Shown piece after piece: positions 3,484 to 6,954 of a stretch of DNA of 19,594 bases. A program made the position numbers and the translations under genes. The DNA lies in NCBI GenBank assembly GCA_041309125.1, contig JBFZAD010000196.1:1-19594 (forward strand). The letters run 5' to 3'. This DNA is from Candidatus Omnitrophota bacterium (GTDB lineage: Bacteria > Omnitrophota > Gorgyraeia > Gygaellales > Gygaellaceae). Each line of letters begins with the position of its first letter. Positions within the stretch are counted from its first letter, which is position 1. A model generated the notes under the pieces. That model did no database searches and was not told the origin of the DNA. It saw only the letters and a list, made by a program, of their open reading frames with translations.

Positions 3484-4041
3484 TTAACCTTTGATTAATG
3501 CAAGCGTCTCTGAGCGCGTCTTCTCATTTTCCTTAAAAATACCTCTTACGGCTGAAGTTGTAGTAACCGTGCCTGGCTTTTTTACTCCGCGCATTGACAT
3601 GCAAAGATGCTCTGCCTCAATAACAACCATTACTCCAAGGGGTTTAAGCTTTTCCATGATTATCTCAGCAATCTGTGTAGTGAGCCTCTCCTGAACTTGT
3701 GGCCTTTTTGATAATATATCAACGACCCTGGCAATCTTGCTTAGACCAGTTACCCTGCCGCCTTTTGGTATGTAGGCAATATGCGCCCTGCCTAAAAACG
3801 GCAGTAGGTGATGTTCGCAGCAACTGTAAAGGGGTATATTTTTCAGGAGAACTATCTCCTCGTGTTTCTGATCCAAAATAACCTCTAATTCTTTTCTCGG
3901 ATCTTGTTTTATCCCGGCGAATATCTCCTCATACATCTCTGCCACCCTCCTAGGCGTTTCCAGCAAATCCCGACGTTTAGTATCCTCTCCGATTGCCTCT
4001 AAGATCATCCTTACTGCTCTCTCAATTTTCTTTTTATCCAT
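3484..4041 (-). CDS. folE: GTP cyclohydrolase I (FolE type 1)
   Basis: 185 aa with the hallmark [10 protein letters not shown] zinc/active-site motif, the GLSK.AR segment, QVQERLT and [15 protein letters not shown] lies 5 nt upstream of the ATG. Confidence 0.95.
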
Positions 4042-4062: not shown

Positions 4063-4080
4063 CTGCCTGCCGGCAGGCAG
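4063..4080. repeat. 18-nt perfect GC-rich palindrome CTGCCTGCCGGCAGGCAG in the mnmE-folE spacer
   Basis: Read directly: CTGCCTGCC is the reverse complement of GGCAGGCAG. As RNA it could form a 7-bp stem with a CCGG loop. No U-tract follows on the transcribed minus strand. Confidence 0.85.
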
Positions 4081-4094
4081 ACACCAAACACCAA
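4081..4094. repeat. Tandem heptamer ACACCAA x2 (TTGGTGT x2 in gene sense), ending 2 nt from the mnmE stop codon
   Basis: Read directly: acaccaa acaccaa at 4081-4094, directly next to the palindrome. Confidence 0.8.
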
Positions 4095-4096
4095 AT

Positions 4097-5545
4097 CTAT
4101 TTCCCTATGCAAAACTCACTAAATATTCTATCCAACACCTCATCCGAAACAGTTTGACCCGTAATTTCACCCAGGCTCTCAATAGCTAATTTTACATCTA
4201 AAGCAACAAATTCCCAAGACAATTTTTGCCTTAAACTATCAACTGACCTAGCGATTGATTCTTCTGATTTCTTCAATGATTCTATATGCCTGGCATTGCT
4301 TACGATAATACTTTGCGTATTTATAATCTTGCCATGCCAAATCTTTTTTATGATTTCATTTTCTAAATCACCGAGCCCTATATTTCTTGTTGCAGATAGT
4401 CTGATTATCTTTTTAAATTTTTTCTTTAATAGATTAACCTCTATCTTTAATGGTAGGTCAACCTTATTAATAACTACAATAAGTTCTTTGTCCCCAGAAA
4501 GTTTAATTATCTGTTTATCTTGGTTGCTGATTTTCTTACTGCCGTCAAATATCAATAATACTAAATTTGCTTCCTTTAAATATCTTAAGCTGCGCGATAT
4601 AGCCTCTTTTTCAATTATATCCTTTGGCTCAATAATTCCTGCCGTGTCGACAAAGCGTAGTGGCACTCCCTTAATATCAACAAACTCTTCAATGACATCG
4701 CGGGTTGTCCCGGCAATTGGAGTTACAATTGCCCTCTCTTCACGTAAAAGCATATTCAATAGAGAAGATTTACCTACATTTGGCTTGCCACAGATAACAA
4801 CATTAATTCCCTCTCTTAAAATCTTGCCTTCGTTTGAGTTATGAAGGATCGAGATAATTTTGGATTTTAAATTTTTAAGCATTTTCTTTATCTCTTTATA
4901 TGATAGGCTGCTATTATCCTCATCAGGAAAATCAATATTTGCCTCTATTTGAGTCAAGATATCTAGCAGCAATCCTCTTAGAACATTAATCTCTTTTGAT
5001 AGCCTTCCCCTTAATTGATCCAGGCCTAATTGTAGTCCCATGTCTGTCTTTGAGCTCACAATATCTAAAACAGCCTCTGCCTGAGTAAGATCTATTCTGC
5101 CGTTTATAAAGGCGCGCTGGGTAAACTCGCCAGGACGGGCGAGCCTTGCACCATTTGACAAGACTAAATCTAGAATATTTTTTAAAGGAACAATCCCTGA
5201 ATGACAGTTTATCTCAACTATATCTTCGCGCGTGTATGTATGCGGCGCCCTCATTACCGTCACCAGCACCTCGTCAATAATGTTGCGTAGTGCGTAGTGC
5301 GTAGTGCGTACAGCGTTTTCTTTCGACGCACGACGCACGACGCACGACGCACGACGATTAATAATCCAGCCATAATTTGTAGAATAGTTCCTAGCCTTGC
5401 TTAAACTTCTTGCCTTTGCCGATTTAAAAATCCTATCTACAATCTTGATGGCGTCTTTGCCGCTAACCTTAACGATGCCGATTCCGCCTTCCCCTATCGG
5501 AGTCGAGATAGCAACGATTGTATCGTGTAAATCTAATTCAGACAT
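4097..5545 (-). CDS. mnmE: tRNA modification GTPase MnmE (TrmE)
   Basis: The N-terminus is DTIVAISTP.GEGGIGIV. The G-domain has GKPNVGKSSLLN, TPIAGTTRD and DTAGI. The C-terminus ends in the hallmark FCIGK. The ATG overlaps the folC stop by 13 nt. Confidence 0.95.
   Translation of the reverse strand: MSELDLHDTIVAISTPIGEGGIGIVKVSGKDAIKIVDRIFKSAKARSLSKARNYSTNYGWIINRRASCVVRRASKENAVRTTHYALRNIIDEVLVTVMRAPHTYTREDIVEINCHSGIVPLKNILDLVLSNGARLARPGEFTQRAFINGRIDLTQAEAVLDIVSSKTDMGLQLGLDQLRGRLSKEINVLRGLLLDILTQIEANIDFPDEDNSSLSYKEIKKMLKNLKSKIISILHNSNEGKILREGINVVICGKPNVGKSSLLNMLLREERAIVTPIAGTTRDVIEEFVDIKGVPLRFVDTAGIIEPKDIIEKEAISRSLRYLKEANLVLLIFDGSKKISNQDKQIIKLSGDKELIVVINKVDLPLKIEVNLLKKKFKKIIRLSATRNIGLGDLENEIIKKIWHGKIINTQSIIVSNARHIESLKKSEESIARSVDSLRQKLSWEFVALDVKLAIESLGEITGQTVSDEVLDRIFSEFCIGK
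5284..5356. repeat. Inverted pair of heptamer arrays inside mnmE: (TGCGTAG)x3+TGCGTAC, a 12-nt spacer, then (CGACGCA)x4+CGACG
   Basis: Read directly. Arm 5284-5311 and arm 5324-5351 are complementary at 23 of 28 positions, with one A/G mismatch per unit. In frame they encode NRRASCVVRRASKENAVRTTHYALRN. Confidence 0.9.
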
Positions 5546-6954
5546 AGCTTACGTGCCTCTGCTGTAACATAAAGAGAGCCTGTGATTAAAATCAAACTCT
5601 CTTTATTATTATATCTTTTAGTAAGATTTAATGCGCTGGCAACATCTTTTGTAGTATGAAATTCAGACAAAACTTCATTATTAAGGCCACCCAGTGATTT
5701 TAATATAAATTTTGTGCTTGCTGCCCTTGGATTTTTTGATTTTGTAAGAATAATATTCTTACAAATTGGGAATAACTCATTGGCAATTGATTTTATATCC
5801 TTATCTTTGGCTGCGCCAAAAATTAGATTGATACCTATTCTTGAGAATCTTTCTATCAGGGTAGTCTTCAACGCTCTTGCCGAAGCTTGGTTCTGTGCGC
5901 CATCTATTATTATTAAAGGCTTGCGGGAGATTATTTCAAACCGTGAAGGCCACTTTGTGTTTAGTAATCCTTTTCGAATTTTATTTTCTCTGACATTTAT
6001 ACTCTGTTCTTTTAGGGCCTCAATAACACCAATCGCTACAGAGGCATTAATAATCTGATGAAAACCGAGAAATGGAATCTTAACTTTTTTATAATTATTA
6101 AATTTAGAATAGAAATTAAAGGTCTCTCCTGCGCTATCAAAATCCGTTCTCTCAAATAAGATATCTTCACCTATTTCGTACAACTTTGCATTTTTATCCT
6201 TACATCTTTTTTTAATTACTTCTCCTGCAATATCTTCTTGCGGTGCACTAATCACGCATAGCTGTGGCCTGTGGCCTGTGGCCTGTGGCCTTCTTTTTAT
6301 AATTCCAGCCTTTTCCTTTGTAATTCTTTCCAAAGTGCCACCTAATATCGCAGTATGTTCATAGCTAATAGGAGTGAGCGCAGAAACGAGCGGATTCACA
6401 GTATTAGTTGCATCGAGCCTTCCCCCTAAACCAGTTTCTAGCACAACAAAATCAACTTCTTTTTCTAGAAAATACAAAAACGCCAAAGCAGTAAGCACTT
6501 CAAAAAAAGTTAAATTATAATCTTTTTTTCTTCTTTTTATCTCATCTATCCCTATTTTCAATTTTCTCATCAAGTTTGTAAAATCATCGCAGGAAATCAT
6601 TCCTTCAAAATCTGACTGAAGCCTGTGGCCTGTGGCCTGAAGCATGTGGCCTGAAGCCTGTGGCCCAGAAGATAAGATCCTTATCCTCTCTCTAAAATCA
6701 TTCAAATGCGGCGATGTATATAGTCCTACCCTATATCCCGCTTCGCGCAAAATATATGCAATGAATGCACAGGTTGAACCCTTGCCTTTAGTTCCAGCTA
6801 CATGAATACATTCAAGTCTTTCTTGTGGATTCCCAATGAAGTTCAAAAAATATTTGAAGCGACTTAAATCAAATGAGGTTTTATACGGATAGGACGATAT
6901 CTTCTCGTAATCAATGAAGGAATTTAAATAAGATATTGCTTTTTGGAAAGTCAA
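5533..6954 (-). CDS. folC: Bifunctional folylpolyglutamate synthase / dihydrofolate synthase (FolC, Mur-ligase family)
   Basis: P-loop HVAGTKGKGST, SPHL..F.ERI, ETGLGGRLDATN, ISYEHT and DGAQN motifs are all present. Confidence 0.9.
   Translation of the reverse strand: MTFQKAISYLNSFIDYEKISSYPYKTSFDLSRFKYFLNFIGNPQERLECIHVAGTKGKGSTCAFIAYILREAGYRVGLYTSPHLNDFRERIRILSSGPQASGHMLQATGHRLQSDFEGMISCDDFTNLMRKLKIGIDEIKRRKKDYNLTFFEVLTALAFLYFLEKEVDFVVLETGLGGRLDATNTVNPLVSALTPISYEHTAILGGTLERITKEKAGIIKRRPQATGHRPQLCVISAPQEDIAGEVIKKRCKDKNAKLYEIGEDILFERTDFDSAGETFNFYSKFNNYKKVKIPFLGFHQIINASVAIGVIEALKEQSINVRENKIRKGLLNTKWPSRFEIISRKPLIIIDGAQNQASARALKTTLIERFSRIGINLIFGAAKDKDIKSIANELFPICKNIILTKSKNPRAASTKFILKSLGGLNNEVLSEFHTTKDVASALNLTKRYNNKESLILITGSLYVTAEARKLCLN
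6262..6290. repeat. Tandem heptamer (CTGTGGC)x4 inside folC (GCCACAG in gene sense)
   Basis: Read directly: four perfect units at 6262-6289 plus one base. In frame they encode RRPQATGHRPQ. Confidence 0.9.
6616..6664. repeat. Tandem heptamer array of 7 units inside folC: CTGAAGC CTGTGGC CTGTGGC CTGAAGC ATGTGGC CTGAAGC CTGTGGC
   Basis: Read directly. In frame it encodes GPQASGHMLQATGHRLQ. It uses the same core unit as the 6262-6290 array, mixed with a CTGAAGC variant. Confidence 0.9.

Follow-up and report, generated by a model that had tools for sequence, protein, structure and literature searches.

An in-frame heptamer array in an Omnitrophota folC gene belongs to a dispersed class of short tandem cassettes

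A heptamer array read through within folC

The DNA analysed here, referred to as the window, is a stretch of 19,594 nucleotides (nt) from a Candidatus Omnitrophota bacterium (assembly GCA_041309125.1, contig JBFZAD010000196.1). Its folC gene contains a tandem array of the heptamer CTGTGGC (site 1) and a second, mixed array of related units (site 2); coordinates of these and of other features are collected in Table 1. The folC open reading frame (ORF) matches the Pfam domains Mur_ligase_M (PF08245, 6.9e-15) and Mur_ligase_C (PF02875, 2.5e-12) and the solved FolC/FPGS structures 1o5z (6.6e-57), 1fgs (9.2e-55), 2vor and 1w78. It is the one folC match in the source genome (here G000), which is 83% complete.

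Tandem Repeats Finder (TRF), run on the window, places the site-1 array at 6262–6291 (period 7, 4.3 copies, 100% matches). Four full CTGTGGC units occupy 6262–6289 and the period runs on through 6290–6291. An earlier sequence-only reading had described four perfect copies in frame inside folC, which TRF and the ORF translation bear out; its start coordinate stands, whereas its end (6290) falls one base short of the periodic run. That reading had also set a heptamer with five G or C bases in seven against an AT-rich gene, and local composition agrees (G+C ~0.57 at the array versus ~0.30–0.35 in flanking folC). In the protein the region reads ...EKAGIIK-RRPQATGHRPQ-LCVISAPQ..., the central block spanning residues 221–231 of 473. 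With no common factor between 7 and 3, any heptamer array free of stops yields the same cyclic heptapeptide in every phase.

Chance is excluded as the origin of the array, because a third-order Markov genome of equal size (1.84 Mb) held no perfect period-7 run longer than 18 nt. We also considered a hairpin role and dropped it: the RNA fold of the site-1 array is weak (−14.1 kcal/mol, z = −1.8), unlike those of a double array in the neighbouring mnmE and of folC site 2.

An insertion into a loop of FolC

FolC proteins of outgroups (Nitrospirota, Chloroflexota, Dadabacteria and Bacillota) pass from the KAGIIK motif through three residues into a β-strand, where the source-genome protein has 11. 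The three-residue state is likewise found in distant Omnitrophota (L024–L026) and in some FolCs of the same order (L005/L021, L011, L017 and L022). On this alignment, the site-1 array is a real insertion of about eight residues. Its placement straight after KAGIIK is as the sequence-only reading had proposed, although the 9–10 residues envisaged there were too many. Both inserts, at sites 1 and 2, are restricted to one Omnitrophota subclade, and the outgroups are without the site-2 insert.

To place the insert structurally we used an AlphaFold2 model of the source-genome FolC, built on 81 homologues (predicted local distance difference test score (pLDDT) 89.6, predicted template modelling score (pTM) 0.91). 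Residues 219–232 form a coil between a helix (208–218) and a strand (233–236), with model confidence falling to ~74 at residues 221–230 (site 1) and below 50 at residues 100–112 (site 2). No disturbance of the fold by the site-1 loop extension is predicted.

Unrelated units and quantised lengths at one site

Arrays at the identical position are present in four genera, each 30–31 nt long and each built from an unrelated unit: (AGGCCAC)x4 + AG in the source genome, (AGCTGTC)x4 in G004, (GTTCACA)x4 in G015 and (GGGACGA)x~4 in G008. This recurrence bears on an assembly or binning artefact, in which a repeat would have been collapsed or expanded, or the contig would be chimeric. Such an origin might be suspected of a fragmented metagenome-assembled genome (MAG) of 269 contigs, but we consider it exceedingly improbable: the array, at 30 nt, is below any read length, its frame is intact, assemblies made independently, by different projects and with different assemblers, have equivalent arrays at this very codon position, and contig ends hold no excess of arrays (5 observed versus 4.1 expected).

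Loop length, taken from GIIK to APQ in the called proteins of 115 Omnitrophota FolC homologues (~50% identity), falls into discrete classes. Seventeen sequences retain a base state of 8 amino acids (aa) without an insert, 38 have 15 aa (+3 heptamers) and 28 have 16 aa (mostly +3 octamers), with a small tail of longer loops that combine an array with a further insert; 83 of the 115 loops are therefore 8, 15 or 16 aa long. A 7-aa periodicity is visible in 29 of the 38 members of the +7 class and an 8-aa periodicity in 17 of the 28 members of the +8 class. Most loops of the +14/15 class combine an array with a nested LPAGRQ-type segment, which the palindrome CTGCCTGCCGGCAGGCAG encodes. The expectation of the sequence-only reading that only three-unit changes keep the frame is what the 8-, 15- and 16-aa classes display.

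Matches to folC were listed for 30 of the 31 genomes, and the one internal stop among these matches is a TGA in G001. That match (C1:82077–83393; L019), from a genome in the same family as the source genome, has one in-frame TGA and an open frame of 444 aa.

A genome-wide class of heptamer arrays

In the source genome (1.84 Mb, 269 contigs, 37.6% G+C), perfect arrays with three or more copies were counted 37 times at period 7, twice at period 5 and never at period 6. TRF arrays of at least three copies number 141 at period 7 and 0, 3, 26 and 13 at periods 5, 6, 8 and 9, respectively; the Markov null yields one at period 7. Taking 'inside a gene' to mean within a stop-free open frame of at least 100 aa, with a Pfam check of a sample, 88 of the 141 arrays lie wholly inside long ORFs, and these genic arrays use 53 distinct sense units. 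Arrays are under-represented in such frames (62%, versus 93% of the genome), yet the 88 include core enzymes. Eight sampled hosts are ValRS, NadC, PyrK, PyrF, PurM, HemB, PheS and MiaB, and in each the array lies within the conserved domain match. The folC array is not the isolated oddity that the sequence-only reading had implied, given some 140 such arrays in this genome, many in core enzymes, and arrays of other units at the same loop elsewhere.

Period-7 arrays have a median length of 31 nt (4.4 copies; interquartile range 28.5–33), coding and non-coding alike. Perfect-run lengths form a plateau from 21 to 35 nt and end at 37, unlike those of an open-ended microsatellite, which would decay geometrically. 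Cassettes of about four units of 7 nt (sometimes 8 nt), ~30–33 nt long, constitute a class that is spread over the source genome and its relatives. Octamers of the source genome were compared to see whether unit count or total length is the conserved quantity, and are too widely scattered to favour either. One octamer family, GTTATCCG / CGGATAAC, measures 35–41 nt and lies mainly outside long ORFs (C29:2437, C42:548, C69:4739 and C184:14600), translating to SGYPVIRL where in frame; octamer arrays of G008, TGGTGACN, measure 32–36 nt.

About half of the arrays belong to four families, ACGCANN, CTCCNAA, CGCTANN and CAGGCNN, none of which contains G3 tracts. The folC unit is a member of CAGGCNN, with further occurrences at folC site 2 and on contig C106. 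Arrays cluster, with 16 adjacent pairs at most 100 nt apart versus 1.1 expected, and near pairs share a unit family in 26% of cases versus 10%. Among non-coding copies, inverted doublets are frequent.

A PyrK-like ORF of 285 aa in the source genome (dihydroorotate dehydrogenase electron-transfer subunit; C268:2181–2673) contains arrays of several unit families and a nested palindrome (LQTPACRQARPNSKLQT), and is a case of extreme loop rewriting in one small enzyme. On C162, a segment of ~170 nt with two arrays (GTCTCGA and CGCCGTA) occurs at 3860–4040 and again at 5620–5800, the copies lying 1,758 nt apart. We rejected the idea of a gene cassette bracketed by these arrays: the duplicated pair is a conserved intergenic segment between tandem PEP-CTERM paralogues, and looks like a region duplicated together with the PEP-CTERM genes.

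Beyond the source genome, arrays were counted in samples of 40–120 kb from relatives. Density per 100 kb is ~7.7 in the source genome and ~5 in G008 and is low in G009 and G012; none was present in the 80 kb sampled from G001, a member of the source genome's family, or in 60 kb of G018. The folC unit as (CTGTGGC)x3, with at most one mismatch, is found in 3 of 201 genomes of the order. The array format is common across the clade, and the unit repertoire is genome-specific.

These data allow a contingency locus to be weighed, in which folC would be turned off and on, or its level adjusted, whenever the array slipped by one or two units. The arithmetic is suited to it, as a gain or loss of one or two units shifts the frame and a perfect array is the most slippage-prone state, and there is precedent for a coding heptamer array that can switch: neuO of the Escherichia coli K1 prophage CUS-3, an accessory surface-modification gene with 3–53 units of (AAGACTC)n in its 5' region, is OFF in 65.6% of genomes (PMC13001214). 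Phase variation of this type is nevertheless very unlikely here. The folC gene is a core gene with a single match in an 83%-complete genome, and its array has 4.3 units in mid-gene. Only frame-preserving loop lengths occur among the called proteins of the 115 homologues, and the folC matches listed in relatives are free of internal stops bar the one TGA in G001. A search for frameshifted or split genes at the arrays of the source genome found none (four candidates proved to be ordinary neighbouring genes), and like arrays sit in ValRS, PheS, HemB and PurM, among others, and to switch these off would be lethal.

Cassette replacement and copying between sites

Two FolC proteins that are 96% identical outside the loops, P0047 and P0052, differ in their site-1 cassette: the former has an octamer cassette (SHKVTRSQSHQ) and the latter a heptamer cassette (RQKTGGRRQK), while a 90% relative, P0065, is without a cassette at this site. 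At the DNA level, the contigs L057 and L058 are collinear and 88% identical. Between the Lys codon and TTAGT, L057 reads (GTCACAAG)x4 over 33 nt and L058 reads AGGCAAA/AAGCAGG x4.3 over 30 nt, and this swap is the sole intragenic length difference in 3.8 kb.

The source of the replacing sequence can be approached through the second site. The L057 site-1 cassette is identical over 24 nt to its own site-2 cassette; the other site-1 cassette is common to P0005 and P0052, and the site-2 cassette is common to P0005 and P0047. Taken together, this sharing suggests, as the simplest history, that a copy of the site-2 cassette overwrote site 1 in the P0047 lineage. Across FolC proteins, sites 1 and 2 have a peptide of at least 4 aa in common in 14% of comparisons within a protein versus 1.6% between proteins, and one of at least 6 aa in 6.6% versus 0.39%, a 9- to 17-fold excess within proteins; the source-genome FolC is among these cases, its two sites having the peptide QATGHR in common and site 2 carrying the site-1 unit. 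Turnover, as read from these comparisons, is fast, sharp-edged and cassette-like.

Triplication in situ of a native seed was considered as the sole origin of the inserts. The x1x2x3-xxxx-x1x2x3 pattern fits it, as do the tripeptides of alleles without an insert, which resemble a unit; we rejected it, as it leaves identical cassettes at two sites of one gene unexplained.

The same comparisons bear on an adaptive reading, in which the extra loop would serve Omnitrophota FolC as a protein feature, perhaps in interaction or regulation, and the DNA periodicity would be incidental. Persistent occupancy speaks for such a role, as ~85% of subclade FolCs carry a site-1 insert and nearly all a site-2 insert. 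However, the peptide is unconserved between genera and even between 96%-identical proteins, 17 homologues do without an insert, the periodicity resides at the DNA level and is of the same kind as in intergenic arrays, and model confidence in the loop is low. We regard an adaptive loop as highly improbable.

Other arrays and a palindrome in the window

The neighbouring mnmE gene has two opposed arrays of its own, near-inverted arms that pair with one another (z = −3.6). Thirteen nucleotides (5533–5545) belong both to the end of folC and to the start of mnmE, and the gene order purH-folC-mnmE-folE is kept in L057 and L058. In L058, mnmE is called in two pieces owing to an in-frame TGA (5260–5275; …KEAVKR*KRHIHL…) that lies away from any repeat array and could be a sequencing error, a pseudogene or recoding.

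Table 1 Features of the window discussed in the text
Feature	Position	Strand	Description
Palindrome CTGCCTGCCGGCAGGCAG + (ACACCAA)x2	4063..4095	.	18-nt perfect palindrome at 4063–4080; one of 9 copies in the source genome
mnmE (tRNA modification GTPase)	4097..5545	−	ORF + Pfam; neighbour of folC, hosts both arms
mnmE cassette arm 2	5284..5316	−	(ACGCACT)n family, gene sense; translated AVRTTHYALR
mnmE cassette arm 1	5324..5356	−	+ strand (CGACGCA)x4.7; near-inverted partner of arm 2; translated RRASCVVRRAS
folC (folylpolyglutamate synthase / dihydrofolate synthase)	5533..6954	−	473 aa, TTG start; hosts site-1 and site-2 cassettes; Pfam and PDB matches
FolC site-1 cassette	6262..6291	−	+ strand (CTGTGGC)x4 + CT; gene sense (AGGCCAC)x4 + AG; 30 nt; RPQATGHRPQ, residues 222–231
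FolC site-2 cassette	6616..6665	−	~7 units, GGCCACA / GGCTTCA mixed (gene sense); translated GPQASGHMLQATGHRLQ

The palindrome, (C)CTGCCTGCCGGCAGGCAG(G), measures 18–20 nt and occurs at nine loci in the source genome and five in G008, with none in G001, G004 or G018. The source-genome loci outside the window are C106:3143, C111:2615, C125:2670, C201:12723, C203:6555, C268:2288, C44:1871 and C220:379. Copies in this genome are nearly always inside or beside heptamer or octamer arrays. In other genera, the longer FolC loops again contain its LPAGRQ-like translation, an in-frame addition of 21 nt. The palindrome may be a tiny mobile hairpin that targets arrays.

Discussion

Any explanation of the folC array has to accommodate an insertion, its read-through translation, membership of a genome-wide class, quantised lengths, sharp-edged replacement and sharing between sites, which the comparisons above establish. 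On balance, we favour as the probable explanation that the array is a translated passenger, one heptamer cassette of a dispersed class, turned over by slippage and template-switch copying and filtered by reading frame, rather than a switch for folC. In folC the array is simply translated, lengthening the coil between the KAGIIK helix and the next β-strand by about eight residues. Slippage during replication, and copying from array to array by template switches over short distances, would create and replace cassettes in the DNA. Of the outcomes, purifying selection would spare only states that are stop-free, tolerated by the loop and frame-keeping, that is, three-unit steps of +21 and +24 nt. 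The cassette would then be a neutral or slightly risky passenger and not a regulatory switch of folate metabolism.

Several observations weigh against this explanation. Within an essential gene, simple stepwise slippage cannot build a four-unit array, since its path leads through frameshifts at +1 and +2 units. The ~31-nt mode persists in non-coding DNA, so frame cannot be its filter. Members of a family have common phase boundaries and a conserved core of 4–5 nt with wobble positions, and a conserved 20-nt palindrome nests within arrays. The stepwise problem, the length mode, the shared boundaries and core and the nested palindrome look more like discrete mobile units than free-running microsatellites. 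At the locus itself, the insert begins six residues past the conserved Lys of EKAGIIK. A change of the source-genome site-1 allele was not found either: its FolC is a singleton, with no BLASTP relative above 54% identity among 5.8 billion proteins, and a flank-anchored pattern (exact flanks, 9–39 nt spacing) detected no variant of the allele in metagenome contigs.

Because the stepwise build, the ~31-nt mode and the fixed family boundaries count against a purely passive model, its main rival is a dedicated writing or copying activity. The cassettes would then be true miniature mobile elements, comparable to repetitive extragenic palindromes (REP/REPIN) or cyanobacterial small dispersed repeats (SDRs), and a trans-acting activity would write blocks of ~31 nt. 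It could be a transposase, a nuclease plus a polymerase, or a reverse transcriptase with a short template, entering or overwriting cassette-bearing sites, and the folC array would be an insertion that survived by landing in frame in a tolerant loop. We judge this possible but somewhat unlikely. It would account for a block length that is fixed in coding and non-coding DNA, for families with common phase boundaries and a core-plus-wobble design, for exact swaps such as the overwriting of site 1 by the site-2 cassette in the P0047 lineage, for hairpins from inverted doublets and for the palindrome that nests in arrays across families. Unit families at many unrelated loci per genome that are nevertheless genome-specific, as with (CTGTGGC)x3 in 3 of 201 order genomes, also suit it. 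Set against these are the more than 50 distinct units of the source genome, in which the format is conserved and no recognisable sequence is, and the arrays themselves, at which no target-site duplication or constant flank was seen.

The only Y1 transposase gene of the source genome (of the REP-associated tyrosine transposase (RAYT)/IS200 type) is bordered by a different inverted repeat and not by arrays or the palindrome, and Y1 gene counts are out of step with array density (G018 has two genes and no arrays in 60 kb). With flanks unrelated and gene counts not following array density, we rejected a RAYT/IS200 link. The Y1_Tnp gene (C168:5113–5859) is flanked by GGTGTCAGAACTC and GAGTTCTGACACC, with inverted copies of GGTGTCAGAACTC, two upstream and one downstream; gene and repeats form a REP-like system of their own that has no relation to the heptamer arrays. 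No candidate enzyme for writing or copying cassettes came to light.

A broader proposition, which we advance tentatively and hold to be rather doubtful, is that several bacterial lineages have an undescribed DNA-writing process that would reiterate a 7- or 8-nt template to about four units (~31 nt), overwrite earlier cassettes with sharp edges and copy units from one site to another nearby. Its effect, if it exists, would be a continual rewriting of surface loops in essential enzymes, and the preference for four units in Xanthomonas and Nostoc would be a signature of the process and not of G-quadruplex selection. To our knowledge, neither the 7-nt size of the heptamer unit nor the preference for about four copies has been explained to date. 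This Omnitrophota lineage provides a natural experiment: in most species a cassette occupies one and the same loop of an essential enzyme, loop length is quantised at +3 units, and cassettes are swapped between genes that are 88–96% identical. It should therefore be possible to date the process and to identify the sites that donate and receive cassettes. A repeat process at the DNA level, rather than amino-acid substitution, would then be a major source of length variation in the core proteins of these bacteria. Such arrays will also disturb alignments, trees built on orthology and the calling of frameshifts or pseudogenes in MAGs.

Comparison with known systems

Heptanucleotides are the commonest class of long simple sequence repeats (SSRs) in most prokaryotes, for which a 7-nt polymerase footprint has been proposed (Mrazek 2007, in the account given by PMC4679880). 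A preference for four units has been described for the heptamers of Xanthomonas (GGGAATC) and Nostoc (GGGGA(C/T)T) (Rehm et al. 2015, PMC4692102), and the TAACTGA repeats of Beggiatoaceae lie mostly upstream of start codons (PMC4679880). In the published cases a single heptamer dominates each genome and lies mainly between genes, with reported under-representation in coding regions; roles through G-quadruplexes or regulator binding have been proposed (PMC4679880, PMC4692102).

The arrays described here resemble this class in their 7-nt head-to-tail units, many dispersed loci, period-7 excess and copy number of about four (median 4.4 in the source genome). They differ in that the source genome has dozens of unit families, most of them not G-rich, and in that 88 of 141 arrays are in ORFs, conserved enzyme domains included; there is no single dominant G-rich, G-quadruplex-capable unit of the kind that marks the Xanthomonas/Nostoc subtype. 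Omnitrophota loops are, moreover, quantised at +7/+8 aa, and their cassettes are replaced at orthologous sites. In the literature that we searched, we found no account of in-frame heptamer arrays occupying conserved enzyme loops, of +7/+8-residue quantisation, of multiple non-G-rich units or of cassette replacement at orthologous sites. Dispersed heptanucleotide repeats are also said to make up the short tandemly repeated repetitive (STRR) sequences of cyanobacteria, attributed to Mazel in 1990.

With neuO, the folC array shares a heptamer array in coding sequence from which full-length protein is obtained only in steps of three units. It is unlike neuO in having 4.3 units in the middle of a core enzyme, with no OFF state seen in relatives.

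Closer in their effect on proteins are the Rickettsia palindromic elements (RPEs), which Ogata et al. are said to have presented in 2000 as selfish DNA lying in frame within protein-coding genes. RPEs are reportedly palindromic, ~100–150 bp long, of few sequence families and evolutionarily stable. If so, the folC cassette is like them in being repeated non-genic DNA read in frame in a housekeeping gene, in a tolerant loop and with a selfish or neutral look; it is unlike them in being a direct array of 30 nt with weak self-pairing (z = −1.8) that is replaced between close relatives.

The SDRs of Nostoc punctiforme, reportedly described by Elhai et al. in 2008 (Genome Res 18:1484), are said to be very small mobile repeats of defined 21–27-nt families and not tandem arrays; they are said to differ between orthologous sites and to be associated with hairpins and heptameric repeats. 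We know of no enzyme for SDRs or for heptamer cassettes. On this description, the two systems are alike in consisting of elements of tens of nucleotides that differ between orthologous sites, a likeness extended by the 20-nt palindrome nested in the arrays of the source genome.

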